From: Ignavibacteriales bacterium
GTDB taxonomy: Bacteria; Bacillota; Sulfobacillia; JABLXB01
Reading direction: 5' to 3'
Length of the DNA: 64,000 bases
Assembly: GCA_050260105.1 (NCBI GenBank)
Contig: JBLNBR010000021.1
Coordinates: 46,245 to 110,244, forward strand
Shown here: positions 10,298-47,095 of the stretch, piece by piece
Layout of the letters: the number at the start of each line of letters is the position of its first letter
Position numbering within the stretch: the first letter of the stretch is position 1
Program-made: the position numbers and the translations under genes
Notes under the pieces: generated by a model
Databases searched by the model: none
Told to the model about the DNA's origin: nothing
What the model saw: only the letters and a program-made list of their open reading frames with translations

Positions 10298-11344
10298 ATG
10301 AGGGGAAAAGACACCGGACCATTCATACGCGGAATGGCCACGTTGGGCGTTTTTTCGGCGGGCCTGTGGCTTCTCGCCGTCGTCCTGCAGGCGAACCTGC
10401 CCAAGTACTTCACGGGCCTCCTGACGGTGGTCTCCATCAACTCAGTGCTGGCGCTGAGCTGGAATCTCGTATCCGGTTTCACCGGGCAGTTCAGCCTCGG
10501 GCACGCCGGTTTCATGGCCATCGGGGGTTACACGTCAGCCATATTGATGGTGAGGTTGAAGTGGCCGTTCTTCGTCTCCTTCATCTGTGGCGGCGTATTC
10601 GCGGGCTTACTCGGGTTCCTGGTAGGGTTCCCTTCCCTGCGCCTCGTGGGCGACTACCTCGCCATTGTCACACTGGGATTCCAATACATCATCCTGGCCG
10701 TGCTCAATAACACGACGAACCTCACCGGAGGTGGCCTGGGCCTCGCGGGGGTGCCCTTCCGGACGTACCTCCCATCGGCGACTCTCACGGTCGTCGTGGT
10801 CCTGTGGCTGCTCGCCAACCTCGTCCGATCGAAGCAGGGGCGCTGTTTCGTCGCGGTCAAGGAGGACGAGATCGCAGCCCAGTCGGTGGGGATCAACACC
10901 ACCTATTACAAGGTACTCGCCTTCATCATCTCGTCTTTCTTCGCCGGCCTCGGTGGGTCGCTGCTCGGCCACTATACGATGTACCTGCACCCCGACATAT
11001 TCAACTACCTGAAGACCATCGAGTCCGTGTCGATGGTCATACTCGGGGGTCTCGGCAGTCTCACGGGATCCCTCGTAGGGGCCCTCTGCATTACGCTGGT
11101 CCCCGAGGTATTCCGGAACCTGGCGACGGTCCTCGCCGGGTTCGGGATGTCGCAGGCGAGCGATTTCTTGCGGAGGGGCTGGATGGTGTTCTACGCCCTG
11201 CTGTTCCTGATGATGATGCTCGCCCGCCCGAAGGGGCTGATGGGCGGCCGCGAGTTGACGTGGGCCGGCATCCGCCAGTCCTGGGGCGGGGCGTTCGCGC
11301 GTAAGGGGGGAAGACGATGGCCGTCCTCGAAGTCCGGAACCTGA
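10298..11344 (+). CDS. livM: branched-chain amino acid ABC transporter permease
   Basis: LivM family (GQFSLGHAGFMAIGGYTSAIL). The 3' end overlaps the livG start. Confidence 0.85.
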   Translation: MRGKDTGPFIRGMATLGVFSAGLWLLAVVLQANLPKYFTGLLTVVSINSVLALSWNLVSGFTGQFSLGHAGFMAIGGYTSAILMVRLKWPFFVSFICGGVFAGLLGFLVGFPSLRLVGDYLAIVTLGFQYIILAVLNNTTNLTGGGLGLAGVPFRTYLPSATLTVVVVLWLLANLVRSKQGRCFVAVKEDEIAAQSVGINTTYYKVLAFIISSFFAGLGGSLLGHYTMYLHPDIFNYLKTIESVSMVILGGLGSLTGSLVGALCITLVPEVFRNLATVLAGFGMSQASDFLRRGWMVFYALLFLMMMLARPKGLMGGRELTWAGIRQSWGGAFARKGGRRWPSSKSGT

Positions 11345-12099
11345 CCATCAAGTTCGGCGGCCTGGTCGCGGTAAACGACGTCTCGCTCGACGTGGACGAG
11401 GGGAAGATCATCGGCCTGATCGGTCCCAACGGCGCGGGCAAGACCACCATATTCAACCTGGTGACGGGGGTCTACAGGCCGACCCGCGGTGAGATCTCCT
11501 ATCGCGGTAGAAGCCTGCTGGGGCTCGCCCCGTACCAGGTGGCGACGCTCGGTGTGGTGCGGACGTTCCAGAACATCAGGCTGTTCAAGAACCTTACCGT
11601 TTACGAGAACGTTCGCACGGCGGCTCACCCCGGCGCCAACTACTCCCTTCTGGACGGGTTCCTCCACACTCCAAGGTACCACAGGCGCGAGGCCACCCTC
11701 GATGAGTGGACGACCCGGCTGCTGAAGCTCTTGAACCTCGACTCGAGGAGGGATGACATTGCCTCGAGCCTCCCATACGGCGTGCAACGGCGACTCGAAA
11801 TAGCCCGGGCGCTGGCGCTGAAACCGGACCTCCTGCTGCTGGACGAACCCGCTGCAGGGATGAATCCCCACGAGTGCAGCGACCTGATATCGTTCATACG
11901 CGAAATCCGGGAGATGTTCGATCTGACCATCTTACTGATCGAACACCACATGGACGTCATAATGAACATATCGGACCGCATGTACGTGCTCAACTTCGGT
12001 GAACTGCTGGCCCAGGGCAGGCCGCACGAGATCCAGAACGACCCGAGGGTGATCGAGGCGTATCTCGGAGAGGAGGAGCAGGATGCTGAAGGTCAATAG
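11317..12099 (+). CDS. livG: branched-chain amino acid ABC transporter ATP-binding protein
   Basis: Walker A GPNGAGKTT, ABC signature and LivG-type C-terminus. Confidence 0.85.
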   Translation: MAVLEVRNLTIKFGGLVAVNDVSLDVDEGKIIGLIGPNGAGKTTIFNLVTGVYRPTRGEISYRGRSLLGLAPYQVATLGVVRTFQNIRLFKNLTVYENVRTAAHPGANYSLLDGFLHTPRYHRREATLDEWTTRLLKLLNLDSRRDDIASSLPYGVQRRLEIARALALKPDLLLLDEPAAGMNPHECSDLISFIREIREMFDLTILLIEHHMDVIMNISDRMYVLNFGELLAQGRPHEIQNDPRVIEAYLGEEEQDAEGQ

Positions 12100-12784
12100 A
12101 CTCAATGTCTTCTACGGTGGCATTCATGCCCTCGACGAGGTTACGCTGGACGTCAGGGAAGGCGAGATCGTCACTATCATCGGGGCGAACGGCGCGGGCA
12201 AGAGTACCCTCCTCCGCACCGTCTCGGGACTGGTCAGGGCGGCATCGGGGGAGATCACGTTCCGCGGCAGGGACATCACGGCTACGCCGTCCCACGAGGT
12301 GGTCGCGCTCGGGATAGCGCACGCTCCGGAAGGCCGCCGCATCTTCGGGAACCTCACGGTGATGCACAACCTGCGTCTCGGGGCGTTCCTGCGCTCGGAC
12401 AGGGAGCGGATCGAGGAGGATCTGGAGCGGGTGTTCCGCCTCTTCCCGAGGTTGAAAGAGAGGGAGAAGCAGCTCGCGGGAACGCTGTCAGGCGGGGAGC
12501 AGCAGATGCTGTGCATGGGGAGGGCGCTGATGTCGTCGCCGAAGCTCCTTCTGCTCGACGAGCCGTCGATGGGCCTCGCGCCGGTACTGGTGCAGGAGAT
12601 CTACCGCGAGATCCGCAACATACGCGAACAGGCCACCATCCTCCTCGTCGAGCAAAACGCGTACCAGGCCTTGCGGGTTGCGGACAGGGGTTACGTACTC
12701 GAAACGGGCAGGATAGTCATGGAAGGGCCGTGTGAACAGCTCAGGAAGGACCCTGTCGTGAAGAAGGCCTACCTCGGGCATTAG
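12083..12784 (+). CDS. livF: branched-chain amino acid ABC transporter ATP-binding protein
   Basis: Walker A GANGAGKST, signature LSGGEQQML. Overlaps livG by 17 nt. Confidence 0.85.
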   Translation: MLKVNRLNVFYGGIHALDEVTLDVREGEIVTIIGANGAGKSTLLRTVSGLVRAASGEITFRGRDITATPSHEVVALGIAHAPEGRRIFGNLTVMHNLRLGAFLRSDRERIEEDLERVFRLFPRLKEREKQLAGTLSGGEQQMLCMGRALMSSPKLLLLDEPSMGLAPVLVQEIYREIRNIREQATILLVEQNAYQALRVADRGYVLETGRIVMEGPCEQLRKDPVVKKAYLGH

Positions 12785-14127
12785 CGACCTTGCGGGAATC
12801 CCTCTTTCGGGAGTTCCCCTTCCAGGGTCCAGGTGCGCGCCCTGGTGATTCTTACGTCGACCAATTCGCCGGCTCGTGGAGAGCCACCGCTGATAAGAAC
12901 GACCTTGTTCGTACGGGTCCTGCCCGTGGCGACGCGGGGGTTTTTTTCACTGGGCCCCTCGACCAGCACCTCTACCGCGTTTCCCACGAGGCGCTCGTTC
13001 AAAGAGAGGGCAATGGGATTGACCTCGCCGGTAAGCGCCGACAAGCGTCTCCTTCGTTCGTCCAGGGGCACCTGCCCCTCCATGGCCGCCGCCCGCGTCC
13101 CTCTCCTCGGGGAGTACATGAACGTATACGCCATATCGAACCTGACCCTGCGGACGAGGTCCAGCGTGTCCACGAAATCGGCCTCAGTTTCCCCGGGAAA
13201 TCCCACGATGAGGTCGGTGGTCACCGATGCCCCCGGAACCGCCTCTCGAACGCGGTCGATGAGGTCCATGTAGTACTCCCTGGTATACCCCCTATTCATG
13301 AGGCGAAGAACCCTGTTGGACCCCGCCTGCACGGGAAGGTGAAAGTGCTCGCAAACGTGTGACGATTCGGCAACCGAGCGGATGATGTCCTCACCGAAAT
13401 CACGCGGATGGGACGTCATGTACCTGATCCTCTCGACGCCGCGGACCCCGTCCACCATGGCGAGCAGCCCGGCGAAACCGGTCCCGCCCTGCACTCCCTT
13501 CCCGTACGAGTTGACGTTCTGGCCGAGCAGCATCACCTCCTTGAACCCGAGGGAAACCGCCTCCTCGACCTCGGCGACAACGGCCCGCGCGTCCCTGCTG
13601 ACCTCACGCCCCCTGACATACGGCACAACGCAGTACGAACAGAAGTTGTTGCAGCCGTACATGACCGTGACGAAAGCCGAAACGCCGGCGGCCCTCCTCG
13701 ACACGACCGGGCCTTCACACCCCCACTCCATCCGGTCGCAGGGGTGCACCTCGAAGAGTCGTCTCTTCCGCGCACGGCTTTCACGAATGAGGTCAGGCAG
13801 CTCGTGGAGGTTGAACGTGCCGAATACGACATCCACGTGGGGGTACGACCTCCTGATCCGGTCGCTCACGCCCTCCTGCTGCGCCATGCAGCCCCCGACG
13901 GCGATCACGAGCGACGGATTGTCCCGCTTGAGCCGCTTCAGATCGCCCAGCCTGCCGAGTATCCGCCGTTCGGCGGTTTCCCTCACGCAGCAGGTGTTCA
14001 CAACGATGACATCCGCCTGTTCAATATCTGTAGCGCGCGCATAGCCGGCCCCCTCCAAAAGGCCCGCTATCACCTCGGAGTCTCGCGCGTTCATCTGACA
14101 ACCGTATGTCAGGATCGAGTAGTTCAC
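12781..14127 (-). CDS. miaB: tRNA-i6A37 methylthiotransferase (radical SAM MTTase)
   Basis: MNYSILTYGCQMNARDSE N-terminus, radical SAM CNNFCSYC and TRAM domain. Its stop codon overlaps the livF stop on the opposite strand. Confidence 0.85.
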   Translation of the reverse strand: MNYSILTYGCQMNARDSEVIAGLLEGAGYARATDIEQADVIVVNTCCVRETAERRILGRLGDLKRLKRDNPSLVIAVGGCMAQQEGVSDRIRRSYPHVDVVFGTFNLHELPDLIRESRARKRRLFEVHPCDRMEWGCEGPVVSRRAAGVSAFVTVMYGCNNFCSYCVVPYVRGREVSRDARAVVAEVEEAVSLGFKEVMLLGQNVNSYGKGVQGGTGFAGLLAMVDGVRGVERIRYMTSHPRDFGEDIIRSVAESSHVCEHFHLPVQAGSNRVLRLMNRGYTREYYMDLIDRVREAVPGASVTTDLIVGFPGETEADFVDTLDLVRRVRFDMAYTFMYSPRRGTRAAAMEGQVPLDERRRRLSALTGEVNPIALSLNERLVGNAVEVLVEGPSEKNPRVATGRTRTNKVVLISGGSPRAGELVDVRITRARTWTLEGELPKEGFPQGR

Positions 14128-14130
14128 GCC

Positions 14131-14712
14131 TCAGCCTCCGCGAGAGCCGCCACCGTGCGACCCGCCGCCACCGCGGTGCATCACGCGGTAGTAGTAGTAC
14201 CCGAGGGAAGCCAGGATGGCGGCAATCAGGGGAGGGATGTCGTCAGTCACCGCCATGTCGGCGTCCATGCCCCACAGAGCGCCTCCCATGCGCCCGTTGA
14301 GCCGCCCGGACTGTATGTGGAACTCGCAGTCGAACCCGACTACGTCTCCCCCGCACCTCCCGGTGACCCTCCCGTCGGGGAGCGCCTCGAGGGTGATGTC
14401 CTGACCGTCCACTAGGCCGCCGAACCTGCCCCCGGCCGTGGCGCCGGAGAGCGCCACATCGACGTCCTTGCCGAGCACCGTTCCTCCGACTCTGCCTTTG
14501 AGTGTGCCGGCGACAGGATCGTACTCGAGGTTTATCGAGCCGCCGCCGATGGCCCCGCCTATCCTGCCCTCCAATATGCCGTCATGCAGCGTACAGCGGA
14601 TGTCGTATCCAGAAATCGCCCCACCTATTCTCCCGGTAACCTCTCCCAATCCCCATTCCTCCATCCACAACCCTGAACGACACCGCTTTCCCGTTTCTAC
14701 CCGGCCAGGCAT
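14131..14712 (-). CDS. hypothetical Gly-rich tandem-repeat protein (six ~22-aa GRxGGxxxGxDxxxxL units, C-terminal TM helix, Tyr/Gly-rich tail)
   Basis: ORF ends 4 nt upstream of the miaB start on the same strand. It carries a strikingly regular internal repeat and ends ...IPPLIAAILASLGYYYYRVMHRGGGGSHGGGSRGG. An alternative ATG is at 14664 (MEEWGLG). Confidence 0.5.
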   Translation of the reverse strand: MPGRVETGKRCRSGLWMEEWGLGEVTGRIGGAISGYDIRCTLHDGILEGRIGGAIGGGSINLEYDPVAGTLKGRVGGTVLGKDVDVALSGATAGGRFGGLVDGQDITLEALPDGRVTGRCGGDVVGFDCEFHIQSGRLNGRMGGALWGMDADMAVTDDIPPLIAAILASLGYYYYRVMHRGGGGSHGGGSRGG

Positions 14713-14772
14713 AACCCCTGCTGAGAGGTAAAGTTGCCGGATGCGAGAACTCTATGTGTGGGGGGCATGCGC

Positions 14773-15495
14773 ATGGACCGCTCGTTCAGGGCCGTGATAA
14801 GGAGGGCGGGAAAGGCCGTTGCTGATCACAGAATGATCGGCGAGGGCGATCGTATAGCCATTGGTCTTTCGGGCGGCAAGGACAGCCTTACCCTTCTCCA
14901 CTGCCTCCTGCACCTGCGGAAGGTTGCACCCATCCGCTTCGAAATCGCCGCCGTCACCATATCGCTGGGCTGGGACACCGATTTCTCACGCATCGCGCGG
15001 CACTGTGGTGAAGCCGGCGTCCCGTTCCACCTGGAGGAAACACAGATCGGCCCCATCGTACTCGAGGCCCGGCGGGAACAGAACCCGTGCTCACTCTGCG
15101 CAAACATGAAGAGGGGCGCCCTTCACGCCGCTGCGGCCAGGCTGGGCTGCAACAAGGTCGCGCTCGCCCACCACCTCGATGACGCGGTTGAGACCCTGTT
15201 GATGAACGTGCTATTCTCAGGGCGCGCCGGCACGTTTTCGCCCGTCACCTACATGTCGCGGCGCGACATCACGGTCATCCGGCCGCTTGTCTATTGCGCG
15301 GAAGGCCTCATACGGGCCGCGGCGGAATCCCTTGGTTTGCCCGTCATCAGTTCGGAGTGCCCCGTCGCGGGCGCGACGTCGAGGGAGACGGTTAAGGGGC
15401 TGCTCAGCGCGGTGAGAGCGAAAAACCCCAGAGTCGACGAGAGCATGCTCTCGGCCATGAAGGGCATCTGGGGGGCGAGGGTCAGCGGCAGGTGA
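14773..15495 (+). CDS. ttcA: tRNA 2-thiocytidine biosynthesis protein TtcA-like PP-loop ATPase
   Basis: PP-loop SGGKDS and CSLCANMKRG Cys motif typical of TtcA. RBS GGGGGG precedes ATG 14773; an alternative ATG is at 14767. Confidence 0.75.
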   Translation: MDRSFRAVIRRAGKAVADHRMIGEGDRIAIGLSGGKDSLTLLHCLLHLRKVAPIRFEIAAVTISLGWDTDFSRIARHCGEAGVPFHLEETQIGPIVLEARREQNPCSLCANMKRGALHAAAARLGCNKVALAHHLDDAVETLLMNVLFSGRAGTFSPVTYMSRRDITVIRPLVYCAEGLIRAAAESLGLPVISSECPVAGATSRETVKGLLSAVRAKNPRVDESMLSAMKGIWGARVSGR

Positions 15496-15524: not shown

Positions 15525-15995
15525 TCATTCATCCCACGTCTGCCAGGGGCCCGCCACCGGCTCGAAGTGCCAGCAACCCTTTCTGAACGGCGGCCTCCAT
15601 CCGGCGGACGGCAGCTTGCCGTGTTTCTCCATTGCGGCAACAAGGTGTTCCGAGAATGCCTCCATCTGTTCCCTGCTCTTGAAATAGAGGAACATGACGC
15701 GATCGAACTCTCCCTGCGCTCCCGCGGGGAGTGGGTGGACGCTGTACTTCCCCACGAGCGAACGGTCCCGCGCGGCCTCGGACAGCACCATCGAGACCAG
15801 CCAGTCTGGATCGGGGAGCTGTCCAAGCCATAGCTCCAACTTCCAGCAATCCCTCGTTGCCGCGGGGGCACGGCCCGTGGTTGCGAATTCGGCATCACAG
15901 GAGGCGCAATCCCTCTCCTGGCCCTCGCCGTACCCGAAATGGCGCCATACCGGCCCCTCGACTATGAACGGTTTGCGCCGCGGGGACCGCTTCAC
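15525..15995 (-). CDS. hypothetical protein
   Basis: 156-aa ORF with globular-looking composition (…FDRVMFLYFKSREQMEAFSEHLVAAMEKHG…). Its start overlaps the upstream gene's stop by 4 nt (ATGA), implying translational coupling. Confidence 0.45.
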   Translation of the reverse strand: MKRSPRRKPFIVEGPVWRHFGYGEGQERDCASCDAEFATTGRAPAATRDCWKLELWLGQLPDPDWLVSMVLSEAARDRSLVGKYSVHPLPAGAQGEFDRVMFLYFKSREQMEAFSEHLVAAMEKHGKLPSAGWRPPFRKGCWHFEPVAGPWQTWDE

Positions 15996-16633
15996 ACCCC
16001 GAAGAGCCTCGACAGGAACGACTTGTTCTTGCGGGCCTTCCTCGAACTCTGCGCGGCGAGCTCGTTCCGGAGCTGCCGCACCTCCTGGTGAGTCCTCATG
16101 AGCGCCGTGAGCAGCCTGTCGCGGTCCTCGGCGCGCCTCTTCTCAGTTTGCGCGAGTTCCCTGGCGAGCCTCTGAAGGGTCATCTCGACCCTGTCCGCGG
16201 TCCTTCCGGCCTGAGCCCCCGGTGAAAAGGCCTCTCTGACCTCGTCATCGGTCGCGCCTTCGGCCCTCATCTTGAGGATCGTGGCTATGGCGGCCACCGA
16301 ATCCGCAGGTAGCGCCGCCGCTCCCGGCCCACCGGCCGCGAGCGAGTCGCCGGCTTCGCTTGCCGGGCCGGCGCCCTCCATGGCGGCGCCCTCCGGACAG
16401 CCGCCGTCGCCCTCCGGTTGCGGTGATTCGGCCCTCACGCCGGGCCGCCAGTCCTCCTCGAGTAACTCCGTCCACGGGGGGCTTCCATCATCCCGGCCGG
16501 CGCCGGACTCCTCGGCGGTAAGGCCGATGATGTCACCGAATCTTGCGAGGATCTCCCTCAGATGGGCGGGCGTTACGCCCAGGTCCTCACATACCTTCGA
16601 GAGAGTAACGTAGTCTCTCTGTTCCGAATCCAT
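15992..16633 (-). CDS. putative DNA-binding protein: N-terminal MerR/RacA-like HTH, long acidic Gly/Ala-rich linker, C-terminal coiled coil
   Basis: N-terminus YVTLSKVCEDLGVTPAHLREI resembles a MerR-type HTH. The C-terminal ~80 aa (TLQRLARELAQTEKRRAEDRDRLLTALMRTHQEVRQLRNELAAQ) are predicted coiled coil. The gene is divergent from spoIIP. Confidence 0.5.
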   Translation of the reverse strand: MDSEQRDYVTLSKVCEDLGVTPAHLREILARFGDIIGLTAEESGAGRDDGSPPWTELLEEDWRPGVRAESPQPEGDGGCPEGAAMEGAGPASEAGDSLAAGGPGAAALPADSVAAIATILKMRAEGATDDEVREAFSPGAQAGRTADRVEMTLQRLARELAQTEKRRAEDRDRLLTALMRTHQEVRQLRNELAAQSSRKARKNKSFLSRLFGV

Positions 16634-16768: not shown

Positions 16769-17710
16769 ATGAGACAATCCCGTCGAAGACCGAATTGGTT
16801 TTTCGCCCTCGCCTCAATCGGCGCGGTTCTGCTGGCGTCCTACACCCTATCCAGGGCGGGATACCTGGGCCCGGCCGCCGAGGCGAGGGGGCGCACCCGC
16901 GCGGTGCTCGATGAACAGGGCGAGGTGCTGTTTCACACGTCCCTTCCCGTGTCGGTGGGGGATCAGTTCATAGGGCGTTCCAACCGCACGTACACCGTGC
17001 GCGAAGTCACCCCATCCACGGCGAGGGCGGTCACCGTGATGTGGGAGCACGACCTCCCCGGCGGCGAGCCCCGCCTCGTTACCCCCGCCACCACGCCCGC
17101 CGGGGTCTCGGCGATGCCACTCGGCCTGGCGAGTAGGGTCGTAGTCATCTACCATACGCACACGGACGAGTCGTACGAACCCACCGAGGGGCGACCATCG
17201 GCCCCGGCGCTGGGCGGTGTGGTGGCGGTCGGCGACGCCTTCCGGCAGGCCCTCGAGGGGATCGGGTACGCGGTCGTGCACGACAAGACGCCCCACACGC
17301 CTCACGATGCACTGGCATACGCGCGCTCGAGGCGTACCGCATACTCTAACCTGAGGTACCGCCCATACATGCTCTTCGATATTCACAGGGACAGCGGCCC
17401 GGCGGAGTCGTACGTGACGAATGTGGAGGGGAAGCCGGCCTCGCAGATAATGCTCGTGGTGGGAAGGCAGAACCCCCTGGTGACTGCGAATCTGGGGGTC
17501 GCCAGGAGGTTGAAGGCGGCCGCCGACGCGGCATATCCCGGTCTCGTGAAGGGAATCTTCCTCGCCCAGGGACACTACAACCAGGACCTGGACCCGGGTG
17601 CACTGCTCCTTGAGGTGGGGACGGATAAGGTCCCCAGGGACCTGGCTGAAAGGGCGATGGCGTTTTTCGCACAGGTTGTCGCGAGGGCTTTCGGCGCCCC
17701 CGGCGTATGA
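16769..17710 (+). CDS. spoIIP: stage II sporulation protein P
   Basis: N-terminal membrane anchor and the SpoIIP signature VVIYHTHTDESYEP. Confidence 0.85.
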   Translation: MRQSRRRPNWFFALASIGAVLLASYTLSRAGYLGPAAEARGRTRAVLDEQGEVLFHTSLPVSVGDQFIGRSNRTYTVREVTPSTARAVTVMWEHDLPGGEPRLVTPATTPAGVSAMPLGLASRVVVIYHTHTDESYEPTEGRPSAPALGGVVAVGDAFRQALEGIGYAVVHDKTPHTPHDALAYARSRRTAYSNLRYRPYMLFDIHRDSGPAESYVTNVEGKPASQIMLVVGRQNPLVTANLGVARRLKAAADAAYPGLVKGIFLAQGHYNQDLDPGALLLEVGTDKVPRDLAERAMAFFAQVVARAFGAPGV

Positions 17711-40967: not shown

Positions 40968-41843
40968 TCAGCGACCGCCCAGGTACTCCACGATTCCCAC
41001 AAGGAGGCCCTTCGCCGCCTGCGTGCGGAACTGGGACGAGGACAGCGCCTTCTCGTCCTCACTGTTGGTCATGAACCCGATCTCAACAAGCGTCGCCGGC
41101 ACGGGACTGTGCCTCAGGACGAAGAAGCCGGCCCACTCGACGCCGACGGGCGCGAGTCCGGTCTGGCTGCTGATTCCTTCCAGCAGACTCCCTGCCAGCC
41201 TGCGGCTCTCGCCATCCCCGTTGTAGAAGGTCATGGCCCCGGAAACGCCTGGATCCTTCTCGTATGCGTTGTTATGTATTGAAATGAACAAGTCGGCGCC
41301 GGTCCGCTCCGCCACGGCGACCCTTGCGCCGAGTTCCTCGGCGTCGGTCGAATAGGGTCCGGTGAGCTCCCTGTCGGTACGCCTCGTCATGGCGACTCGC
41401 CCACCGAGCTGCTTGAGCATCCGCTCCAATTCGAGCGCTATCGCCAGTACGTTGTCGGCCTCCCGCGTTCCCGCCGGCCCCACAGCCCCGGAGTTCGTGC
41501 CCCCGTGCCCCGGGTCGAGCGCGATTGTCTTGCCTGCCAGCAGCCGCCGCGCCCTGCTGTTGAAATCCGAGCGGAGGGCCTCCGCTGTTTCGGGCCCCAC
41601 CCTGCCGTCCACCGTGAGACCCATCTTGGCCTGGAATGACCTCACCGCCTTCTCCGTCGCGGGGCCGAATACACCGTCCAACCCACCGGGGTCGAAACCC
41701 CTCGACTTGAGCGTCTTCTGCAGTTCCAGGACCGCCTCGCCGGAAGAGCCCATCCCCATCACGGGGGCCGCCGCATGCGCGCCTCCGGCCGTGAGCGCCA
41801 GCGTGATGGCTGCTACTGTAACCAATGCGAACAACCGTCTCAT
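40968..41843 (-). CDS. N-acetylmuramoyl-L-alanine amidase (Amidase_3) with N-terminal signal peptide and PG_binding_1 domain
   Basis: Signal peptide MRRLFALVTVAAITLALTAGGAHA, peptidoglycan-binding repeat (LQKTLKSRGFDPGGLDGVFGPATEKAVRSFQ) and amidase_3 core (ALDPGHGG…SIHNNA). Strong RBS AGGAGG. Confidence 0.8.
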   Translation of the reverse strand: MRRLFALVTVAAITLALTAGGAHAAAPVMGMGSSGEAVLELQKTLKSRGFDPGGLDGVFGPATEKAVRSFQAKMGLTVDGRVGPETAEALRSDFNSRARRLLAGKTIALDPGHGGTNSGAVGPAGTREADNVLAIALELERMLKQLGGRVAMTRRTDRELTGPYSTDAEELGARVAVAERTGADLFISIHNNAYEKDPGVSGAMTFYNGDGESRRLAGSLLEGISSQTGLAPVGVEWAGFFVLRHSPVPATLVEIGFMTNSEDEKALSSSQFRTQAAKGLLVGIVEYLGGR

Positions 41844-42111
41844 ACGATTCCTCCTTGCCTCCGGGGTTAGTTGACGGGTTCGGCCGGAGAGGCCTGCCGC
41901 GCGAGCGGGTTCACCCCAAGCATAGTCCCCCGTACCCAGTGGGATTCGGCGCGATGGCACGGTTAAAGTACACATCCAATTGTAGTTAACTTACCCAGAG
42001 CAGTCAGCCGCCGTATTCCCTGCTCAAGGGGTGTAGGAGCGGATTAGCGGCCTGAAGGCTTTATGTAATCCTCATTCGTCGCAGGCTTTCTGGGGGATGG
42101 AAACGGACGCC

Positions 42112-45843: not shown

Positions 45844-47095
45844 GGATCGAATAGAATCGCTGCGCAGGATGGTCGAAGAGGTGTCACGCCGGGAGCGCGG
45901 GCGCAAGGAGGCCGGCGCCGCGGGCCACGGCGCGGCGGGGTCCTGCTCTCAGGGCGCCGGCAGGCCGGTCACCCTGACGGCAGAGGCCGGCGTCACGGTC
46001 ACGCGGTCGGCGTATCCGCTCGATCATCTCCATGGACAATCGCGGTTGGGTTCCGCCCTATCCACGCCACTCCGCCTGGTTCAGGTCATAGCGCGGGATT
46101 TCCGCCCGTTTCCCGGCTTTGAGTCCACGGCGTTCCTGGATGTCGAAACCACCGGGCTGGCGGGTGGCGCCGGAACCCTTGCCTTCCTGGTGGGAATCGG
46201 CAGATTCGAATCCTCCTCGTTCCACGTTACCCAGGTCTTCCTCCACGATCCGGCAGCCGAGGACGAGCTCCTGAAGGAAACGACGGCCGCCCTGGAGGGG
46301 ACCGGGGCCATCGTGACGTTCAACGGCAAGGCGTTCGACGTACCCCTGCTGGAAACCAGGTACGCCATGAACAGGGCCGGGTTCCCCCTGGCTGATCCGC
46401 TTCACGTGGACCTCCTCTCCCCGTCCCGGAGGATATGGTCCCCCGTACTCTCGTCATGTTCGCTCGCAAGCCTCGAGGAGGCCGTGCTGGGCCTTCGCCG
46501 GGATGGGGATATCCCGGGCTGGCTCATCCCCAGTGTCTACGCCGGATATCTCCGCAGCGGCGACCCCGGGGCGATCGATCCGGTCATGGTCCACAACCGG
46601 CTGGACATCCTGTCCCTTGCCGCGCTGCTCGCAAGGCTCGCCATCTGCTTCGAGGAACCCACGGGCCGCCCCGCGCGCAGGGACGGCGTCGAGGCGCTCG
46701 GGGCGGCCTTGCACTACGAGTCGCTCGGCCTCAAACACGAGGCGCTCCGCCTCTACGAAGAGTCTATCGACTCCGGACTCCCCGGGGACCTCCTCACGCG
46801 GGCGTTGTGGGGCGCCCTGCGCCTCTCCAGGAGTGAGAGGAACTGGGATTGCTGCCTGGACCGCGCGCGGGCCCTGGCCGCCTCCGGCGGGGACTACAGG
46901 GCCTGGATCGAGATAGCCAAACACCACGAACACAGGAGCAAGGACTACGCGGCCGCGCTGTCGGCCGCGCAGACCGCCCTCAGCCGGTTGTCCGCCGACC
47001 GGTCGCTGCCCCCGTCCTCGCGCTCCCGGGCAAGGGATGAAATCAACCACAGGATCCGCCGCCTGGAACGGAGACTCGGTCGCGACCGCGCCTAA
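45821..47095 (+). CDS. mrfB: DnaQ-like DEDD 3'-5' exonuclease with C-terminal TPR-like region (MrfB/YprB)
   Basis: Exo I motif FLDVETTGL and downstream Exo II/III-like residues. Overlaps the mrfA stop by 23 nt. Paired with MrfA as in Bacillus. Confidence 0.75.
   Translation: MIPAMDLKDRIESLRRMVEEVSRRERGRKEAGAAGHGAAGSCSQGAGRPVTLTAEAGVTVTRSAYPLDHLHGQSRLGSALSTPLRLVQVIARDFRPFPGFESTAFLDVETTGLAGGAGTLAFLVGIGRFESSSFHVTQVFLHDPAAEDELLKETTAALEGTGAIVTFNGKAFDVPLLETRYAMNRAGFPLADPLHVDLLSPSRRIWSPVLSSCSLASLEEAVLGLRRDGDIPGWLIPSVYAGYLRSGDPGAIDPVMVHNRLDILSLAALLARLAICFEEPTGRPARRDGVEALGAALHYESLGLKHEALRLYEESIDSGLPGDLLTRALWGALRLSRSERNWDCCLDRARALAASGGDYRAWIEIAKHHEHRSKDYAAALSAAQTALSRLSADRSLPPSSRSRARDEINHRIRRLERRLGRDRA

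Follow-up and report, generated by a model that had tools for sequence, protein, structure and literature searches.

Beta-flowers are shallow symmetric barrels composed of 8, 10 or 12 short strands that are contributed by four, five or six hairpin "petals", with loops that are longer on one side (9 vs. 4 residues in A0A494VZL1); many of them enclose a C-terminal hydrophobic helix and are reminiscent of Tubby, most are bacterial, some of the published ones carry the annotation "MORN repeat variant", and their families have been deposited as PF21784-PF21786 in clan CL0395 (Durairaj et al. 2023, Nature 622:646, PMC10584680). The enclosed helix of beta-flowers differs from that of Tubby in both its point of entry and its direction (PMC10584680). 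For the related scramblases, the so-called transmembrane helix has been argued to be the buried core of a 12-stranded barrel (Bateman 2009, PMC2639001). A text search of the literature returned no paper with an experimental structure or function for beta-flowers. Here we describe a repeat protein of ~172 residues encoded on the minus strand of a 64,000-nucleotide stretch of DNA (the window; positions 46,245 to 110,244 of contig JBLNBR010000021.1, assembly GCA_050260105.1, deposited as Ignavibacteriales bacterium), immediately upstream of miaB. Its predicted structure is a barrel of six hairpins, which, when combined with the properties of its C-terminal helix, makes a six-petal beta-flower / Tubby-like architecture the probable (but by no means certain) assignment.

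Repeat units and predicted barrel

The repeat is defined by six copies of the motif GRxGG, located at residues 27, 49, 73, 95, 118 and 140 of the 193-residue reading of the frame (all other residue numbers refer to the 172-residue form), with spacings of 22, 24, 22, 23 and 22 residues; five or more copies were obtained in none of 100,000 composition-preserving shuffles. A preliminary description of this locus, made from the letters alone, had listed six consecutive units of ~22 residues, a hydrophobic segment and a tail, and all of these elements are indeed present, with a period of 22-24 residues. A tandem repeat was not found at the DNA level and, therefore, the repeat is old and has been maintained at the protein level. 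The features of the gene are as follows.

14131..14649, minus strand: most likely coding sequence of the repeat protein, 172 residues, TTG start, TGA stop at 14133-14131
14650..14712, minus strand: 5' extension of the longest open reading frame (ORF), 21 codons (MPGRVETGKRCRSGLWMEEWG), probably an untranslated leader; contains an alternative ATG at 14664 (177 residues)
14657..14662, minus strand: Shine-Dalgarno sequence GGAGGA, 7-8 nt upstream of TTG 14649, read from the sequence
14581..14646, minus strand: hairpin unit 1, residues 2-23 (GEVTGRIGGAISGYDIRCTLHD), with GRxGG; predicted strands 2-9 and 14-22
14509..14580, minus strand: hairpin unit 2, residues 24-47 (GILEGRIGGAIGGGSINLEYDPVA), with GRxGG; predicted strands 25-31 and 36-44
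14437..14508, minus strand: hairpin unit 3, residues 48-71 (GTLKGRVGGTVLGKDVDVALSGAT), with GRxGG; predicted strands 49-55 and 61-68
14374..14436, minus strand: hairpin unit 4, residues 72-92 (AGGRFGGLVDGQDITLEALPD), with GRxGG; predicted strands 71-76 and 83-89
14308..14373, minus strand: hairpin unit 5, residues 93-114 (GRVTGRCGGDVVGFDCEFHIQS), with GRxGG; predicted strands 94-100 and 105-113
14239..14307, minus strand: hairpin unit 6, residues 115-137 (GRLNGRMGGALWGMDADMAVTDD), with GRxGG; predicted strands 116-121 and 128-134
14188..14238, minus strand: hydrophobic Ala-rich helix, residues 138-154 (IPPLIAAILASLGYYYY), predicted as helix 140-163; candidate barrel core rather than transmembrane anchor
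14134..14187, minus strand: basic Gly/Ser-rich tail, residues 155-172 (RVMHRGGGGSHGGGSRGG), predicted to be disordered (predicted local distance difference test, pLDDT, 59-65)

The predicted strands and helix in this list are those of an AlphaFold2 model based on 30 sequences, which reached a pLDDT of 92.3 and a predicted template modeling score of 0.88, with five out of five models at or above 90; an earlier run on 2 sequences yielded the same topology at a pLDDT of 82.8. The model comprises 12 antiparallel strands of 6-9 residues (two per repeat) followed by the helix at residues 140-163, and pLDDT is as high as 98 for residues 131-150, i.e., the linker and the first turns of this helix. Six hairpins and 12 short strands arranged in a shallow symmetric barrel, as described for beta-flowers, are thus present in the model, and so is the asymmetry of the loops: the GG-x-h-x-G loops of 4-6 residues lie on one side of the barrel vs. 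DG-type turns of 2-4 residues on the opposite side (by DSSP and the repeat logo). On the strength of this model, a closed 12-stranded barrel of six hairpins is very likely.

A logo of 233 units, with positions counted from the G of GRxGG, revealed the family signature h-x-G-R-h-G-G-x-h-x-G-x-D-h-x-h-x-h. Positions -2, +2, +11, +13 and +15 are hydrophobic (aliphatic or aromatic) in 69-99% of units and are the better conserved ones (0.7-2.1 bits, with four of the five at 1.4-2.1), whereas the alternating positions are polar in 77-88% (77-81% at -3, -1, +12, +14 and +16) and variable (0.6-0.8 bits); R+1 (95% Arg) and D+10 (62% Asp) are exceptions among these variable polar positions. Glycine occupies G0, G+3, G+4 and G+8 in 89-100% of units, and position +6, within the G+3...G+8 loop, is hydrophobic in 74%. 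Such a combination of a conserved apolar face with a variable charged face is the pattern expected of a barrel that is soluble and apolar inside. If the G+3...G+8 loop closes the hairpin, R+1 and D+10 would be adjacent to each other across the two strands, on the polar face.

The regular Gly-rich repeat with its alternation of small and hydrophobic residues had initially suggested a beta-helix or beta-solenoid, i.e., a polymer-forming repeat protein loosely similar to bactofilin or DUF4097. The confident prediction of two antiparallel strands per unit in a closed 12-stranded meander replaces this proposal with an antiparallel hairpin barrel, and searches for a characterized family of this kind produced no Pfam or NCBIfam match (for Pfam, none to bactofilin, DUF4097 or LiaF at E <= 1-10), so that a beta-solenoid now appears extremely improbable. 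Two DUF4097-like genes (weak Pfam matches) were observed 3-5 kb from a family gene at two unrelated loci (L010, 1914-2732; L015, 1-199), which is probably a coincidence.

A Foldseek search of the predicted model against PDB gave only weak matches of the fatty-acid-binding-protein type (TM-score ~0.35) and was uninformative. The model aligns over ~133 residues at 2.5-3.1 A with NanC, a designed 12-stranded barrel and autotransporter/intimin beta-domains, and intimin alone aligns over 142-151 residues; the last strand of intimin is followed by a segment that traverses the pore, and the helix of the repeat protein occupies the corresponding place in the sequence. The strictly amphipathic nature of the strands could be accommodated by a membrane-embedded pore that is related to 12-stranded outer-membrane porins and has its hydrophobic face turned outward and a lumen lined by Arg and Asp. 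Several observations make such a pore highly improbable, even if marginally less so than a solenoid. Most members lack a signal peptide or lipobox and begin directly at the first hairpin, the strands span no more than 6-9 residues, the tips of the long loops are hydrophobic, and the top matches among outer-membrane barrels share 1-9% identity with no match at the sequence level. Moreover, conservation is higher at the hydrophobic positions, as in a protein core, unlike in membrane barrels, where the residues that face the lipid usually show the lower conservation. Neither a signal peptide nor lipid-facing hydrophobic strands of ~10 residues or more, both typical of outer-membrane barrels, were found in the repeat protein.

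The C-terminal helix and the assignment of the fold

The preliminary description regarded the protein as a membrane protein with a single hydrophobic helix. The properties of this helix do not bear this out: in all 52 analyzed members of the family, its length and hydrophobicity fall short of those of a transmembrane span, and its Ala content is too high for one. A transmembrane span is expected to have ~19-20 apolar residues, a Kyte-Doolittle maximum over 19 residues of at least 1.6 and an insertion energy near or below 0. The uncharged stretch of the helix covers 10-24 residues among the 52 members (at most 17 in 47 of them, with a median of ~14), and 17 in the repeat protein, whose Kyte-Doolittle maximum of 1.37 is below the usual threshold. 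The additive sum for the best 19-residue window (using biological-scale values of Hessa et al. 2005, in a plain sum that ignores position dependence) amounts to +7.9 kcal/mol for the repeat protein and to at least +2.7 kcal/mol in 52 out of 52 members. Thus, the repeat protein departs from a single-pass (tail-anchored) membrane protein in all three respects, and every member does so by insertion energy. Across the family, only residues 142-151 (~10-11 residues) form a uniformly apolar core, of which 29% is Ala (60-74% Ala at positions 143, 144 and 147); Glu is found in 20% of members at the adjacent position 141, and Lys in 37% at position 152.

The dimensions of the predicted barrel would provide a place for such a helix. 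With a calculated Cα radius of ~10-11 A (standard n/S geometry), a 12-stranded barrel cannot be filled by side chains alone, and a 10-15-residue Ala-rich helix would fit the height of a barrel with strands of 6-9 residues. Because the apolar core is short and Ala-rich, with energetics unlike those of a transmembrane span, we consider it rather likely that the helix is the buried core of the barrel. The main alternative is a tail-anchored inner-membrane protein with a cytoplasmic hairpin domain and a membrane-spanning C-terminal helix. It draws on the 16-17-residue apolar stretch followed by a Tyr-rich/basic YYYYRVMHR in the clade of the repeat protein, as at a membrane interface, on an extra N-terminal hydrophobic segment in a few relatives, suggesting membrane association, and on the consideration that the interior of a 12-stranded barrel could remain empty and accommodate a ligand. 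In addition to the weak hydrophobicity, the unfavorable insertion energy and the short Ala-rich core described above, this alternative is at odds with the pLDDT of 98 for the linker and helix, which would be unusual for a free-hanging anchor, and with the need of an aliphatic-lined 12-stranded barrel to be filled. Furthermore, the flank that follows the helix is basic and Gly-rich in the clade of the repeat protein and acidic (EDD...) in another large clade and, therefore, carries no consistent topology signal. Overall, we regard a tail anchor as unlikely, although it is the most serious competitor of the buried helix.

The N-terminal hydrophobic segments mentioned above precede the hairpins in relatives P0010 and P0017 (where they are strongly hydrophobic, with Kyte-Doolittle values of 2.7-2.8) and, as judged by eye, in P0090, which suggests that some versions of the family are membrane-tethered. 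Among other variants of the architecture, relatives P0020 and P0120 have a ~40-residue Gly/Glu/Arg-rich insertion between hairpins 5 and 6 with intact repeats on either side, identifying this junction as a putative natural site of loop insertion in the barrel; relative P0033 carries a DUF7662 domain (PF24698, E 3e-15), unrelated to the repeat family, N-terminal to the six hairpins.

By sequence, the family could not be connected to any catalogued one, in agreement with the initial impression that the repeat fits no named family. Searches of Pfam, NCBIfam and PDB sequences produced no match for the repeat protein or for 44 relatives, a Pfam scan of 35 relatives and 10 divergent relatives at E <= 10 gave no relevant match (no beta-flower, Tubby or MORN), and the family profile retrieved from PDB only noise of the leucine-rich-repeat type (E > 0.2). 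Neither a sequence or profile match to Tub, Scramblase or LOR (CL0395) nor a strong structural match to 2FIM or 1ZXU was found. The claim of novelty, accordingly, holds for the sequence family and is not extended to the architecture, which fits the beta-flower / Tubby-like fold published in 2023.

Four points weigh against the proposed assignment. First, the beta-flower families PF21784, PF21785 and PF21786 match neither the repeat protein (E <= 1) nor the scanned relatives (E <= 10). Second, the tip motif [DNEQ]xxG occurs in only 22% of units at positions +5..+8 vs. 25% in the other turn, and just twice (EVTG, DVVG) in the repeat protein itself. Third, there is no gene neighborhood conserved across lineages that would point to a function. 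Fourth, the position of the helix and the inward and outward faces of the strands are derived from the sequence pattern and not from coordinates of the model. Taking these points into account, we still favor a six-hairpin barrel closed around its own C-terminal helix, i.e., a six-petal beta-flower / Tubby-like architecture, as the probable reading of the predicted structure.

A tentative structural and functional scheme can be outlined on this basis. The repeat protein lacks a signal peptide and, therefore, presumably resides in the cytoplasm. Each unit of 22-24 residues would form one beta-hairpin, and the 12 short antiparallel strands are predicted to close into a shallow pseudo-sixfold barrel, in which the conserved aliphatic positions and two glycines would face inward and the variable polar positions outward. 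The invariant Arg of GRxGG and the Asp of GxD may be paired across strands on the polar face, potentially producing a belt of six ion pairs, and the longer loops of the petals, at one end of the barrel, would be those formed by GG-x-h-x-G. The C-terminal Ala-rich helix would then run back through the lumen and form the core, as it does in the six-petal beta-flower, Tubby, scramblase and LURP1.

As to the function, the protein may attach to the cytoplasmic surface of the membrane as a peripheral protein or bind lipids. We offer this as a possibility that is more doubtful than the fold itself, because it is deduced from the Tubby-like analogy and from the hydrophobic loop tips, the Arg belt, the Tyr cluster and the basic tail, which would all be placed at one end of the barrel. 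A more far-reaching scenario, which we consider quite improbable, would have the repeat protein as a bacterial, near-perfectly sixfold counterpart of Tubby and scramblase with a core helix that is able to exit the barrel and enter the membrane. If true, it would represent a switchable lipid-binding or lipid-handling protein, as well as a living example of how 12-stranded Tubby-like barrels arise by amplification of a single hairpin.

Reality of the gene, its distribution and genomic context

The repeat ORF proves to be a real and conserved gene. An exhaustive profile search of 1.84 billion representatives detected 110 cluster representatives at E <= 1e-3 (66 at E <= 1e-10), and scans of genomes and metagenomes added 14 further loci. 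This exhaustive search was needed to find the family, as a word-indexed protein search with the single sequence retrieved only one relative; three entries of the resulting list (P0085, 1857 residues; P0094; P0110) look like unrelated low-complexity or repeat matches. Named sources of the relatives include Bacillota metagenome-assembled genomes (MAGs), Deinococcus radiophilus and Meiothermus; all of these are annotated as "hypothetical protein", with an empty precomputed Pfam field for 40 out of 40 matches. None of the family members came from a model organism, D. radiophilus and a Meiothermus MAG being the nearest named hosts. Relatives were not found in viral contigs, nor was a second copy of the gene found within the window.

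A high GC content (64% in the window) and long antisense ORFs overlapping the region might raise the suspicion of a spurious ORF. This suspicion can be dismissed with near certainty. The six units, the helix and the polar tail are kept in relatives from contigs with a GC content of 39-52%, as they are here at 64%, and the ratio of nonsynonymous to synonymous substitution rates (dN/dS) is 0.18 relative to the closest relative and 0.09 within another clade. The GC content at third codon positions of the repeat gene (0.79) equals that of miaB and the divergent ttcA-like gene, and two independent gene callers call the gene. Conservation of the reading frame in related genomes thus refutes the GC-driven artifact that was considered at the outset.

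The ORF at 14131..14712 (minus strand) is present and its 193-residue translation is exactly the one given in the preliminary description; the frame stands, and its start at ATG 14712 probably does not, with the first 21 codons left untranslated. A true start at TTG 14649 (172 residues) is probable because homologues begin at the first repeat and because GGAGGA at 14662..14657 is positioned 7-8 nt before this codon. The closest relative (L008, 67% identity; protein P0002) has a TTG at the same place behind GGGAGG, with unrelated sequence upstream and no conservation of the 21-codon leader. A start at ATG 14712 would leave only 21 nt to the divergent ttcA-like gene. In two other assemblies with identical DNA, one gene caller chose the 172-residue form (TTG; NCBI record, contig L012) and another the 177-residue form (ATG 14664). 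These gene calls were reached via a look-up of MiaB, since exact-sequence look-ups of the 193-, 177- and 172-residue forms had no match in the indexed collections. At the locus, a promoter scan detected no sigma-70-like promoter, terminator-like sites were not above shuffles, and Rfam and tRNA scans reported nothing nearby. The adjacent features are as follows.

12781..14127, minus strand: miaB (TIGR01574, 506.6 bits), GTG start at 14127; not in a conserved unit with the repeat gene
14135..14139, minus strand: Shine-Dalgarno sequence GGAGG of miaB, within the 3'-terminal codons of the repeat gene (cgc gga ggc tga ggc GTG)
14734..15495, plus strand: divergent PP-loop TtcA-like gene, 189.8 bits vs. 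an NCBIfam TtcA cut-off of 272

The gap between the repeat gene and miaB, initially given as 4 nt, measures 3 nt (stop at 14133-14131, GTG at 14127). The gene on the other side is divergent, as had been noted, and its identification as ttcA has to be relaxed to TtcA-like in view of its score below the cut-off; its start may lie downstream, at an ATG near 14768. With a 3-nt gap and the miaB Shine-Dalgarno sequence located within the repeat gene, it is plausible that the repeat gene is co-transcribed (as proposed in the preliminary description) or translationally coupled with miaB in this genome, yet this would come without a functional tie. A functional interpretation, in which the repeat protein would be an accessory factor of tRNA thiolation by MiaB and TtcA, could invoke this tight coupling and the divergent ttcA-like gene. 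A tblastn search of 22 homologue loci totalling 172 kb revealed no relative of miaB or ttcA at any of them. The closest relative is located between a HEPN/nucleotidyltransferase pair and unrelated small ORFs, and the neighbors in other lineages include M24 peptidase (pepP), topoisomerase I (topA), ADP-ribosylglycohydrolase, aldo-keto reductase and acetyltransferases, as well as, in one neighborhood, a dcw-like cluster headed by an ORF that resembles MraZ in sequence. Clustering of all flanking ORFs found shared neighbors only within one closely related lineage, and no neighbor is common across lineages. A role in tRNA thiolation is, therefore, a very unlikely explanation. Because homologue loci lack miaB and ttcA and their neighbors vary by lineage, the juxtaposition with miaB is local to this genome and says nothing about function.

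Several other observations were made within the window. Two ORFs at 15525-15995 and 15992-16633 (both minus strand; 156 and 213 residues, with overlapping stop) separate the ttcA-like gene from spoIIP; gene calls for both exist on the identical contig L011, and neither has a Pfam match. The SpoIIP gene is found at 16769..17710 (by a Pfam SpoIIP match on the same identical contig), and the only Rfam match in the window is a cyclic di-AMP (c-di-AMP) riboswitch (ydaO/yuaA leader, RF00379) at 41841-41961 on the minus strand (69.5 bits, E 4.6e-14). For the region 11317-14127, records of an identical MiaB sequence exist for MAGs labeled "Ignavibacteriales bacterium" as well as "Bacillota bacterium", and for the second ATP-binding cassette (ABC) ATPase (233 residues) the "Ignavibacteriales" record shares a 90% cluster with a 233-residue "Bacillota" record. 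Based on these MiaB and ABC ATPase records, the SpoIIP gene and the c-di-AMP riboswitch, the window resembles Bacillota DNA, and its Ignavibacteriales label probably stems from an error in binning.

Significance and comparison with known folds

With the fold assigned as above, the repeat gene stands for a sequence family that is absent from the catalogues and belongs to a fold described only recently and functionally uncharacterized; it is not a new kind of system. The beta-flower fold was recognized only in 2023 from AlphaFold models, and the family described here would add to it ~110 cluster representatives in Bacillota, Deinococcus and Meiothermus that are outside Pfam and have unusually regular repeats. 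Its small size (~170 residues) and the lack of a signal peptide should make the protein easily accessible to a first structure determination and to assays of lipid binding. There is also a lesson for annotation, in that a C-terminal "transmembrane helix" may be a buried barrel core, as with eukaryotic scramblases. The gene adds nothing new on miaB and opens no long-standing question.

Unlike 12-stranded outer-membrane barrels (KdgM/NanC, autotransporter, intimin), the repeat protein has no signal peptide and combines short strands with a conserved hydrophobic face; with 1-9% identity in the top matches and a Bacillota host, this is a likeness of shape and not of family. MORN and MORN-variant proteins are similar in having Gly-rich repeats of ~22-23 residues with one beta-hairpin each, whereas the repeat family has no Pfam MORN match (E <= 10) and no YxGxW / GKxHG pattern. 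Tubby, scramblase and LURP1 (DUF567) share the 12-stranded barrel and the C-terminal hydrophobic helix (the enclosure of which is deduced for the repeat protein), and in the case of scramblase this helix passed for a transmembrane segment for a long time, an ambiguity that recurs here; in contrast to them, the repeat protein has much shorter strands and loops, far more regular repeats, no sequence similarity and no identified phosphoinositide- or Ca2+-binding site.

The closest counterparts are the beta-flowers. The repeat family is distinguished from them by its own signature with an invariant Arg and a conserved Asp, by the presence of [DNEQ]xxG in only about a quarter of its units, by the lack of a lipoprotein signal and, for the repeat protein, by a smaller asymmetry of loop lengths than in A0A494VZL1. 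Nevertheless, both are mostly bacterial, and both combine six hairpins and 12 short antiparallel strands in a shallow barrel, with longer loops on one side and a hydrophobic helix at the C-terminus.

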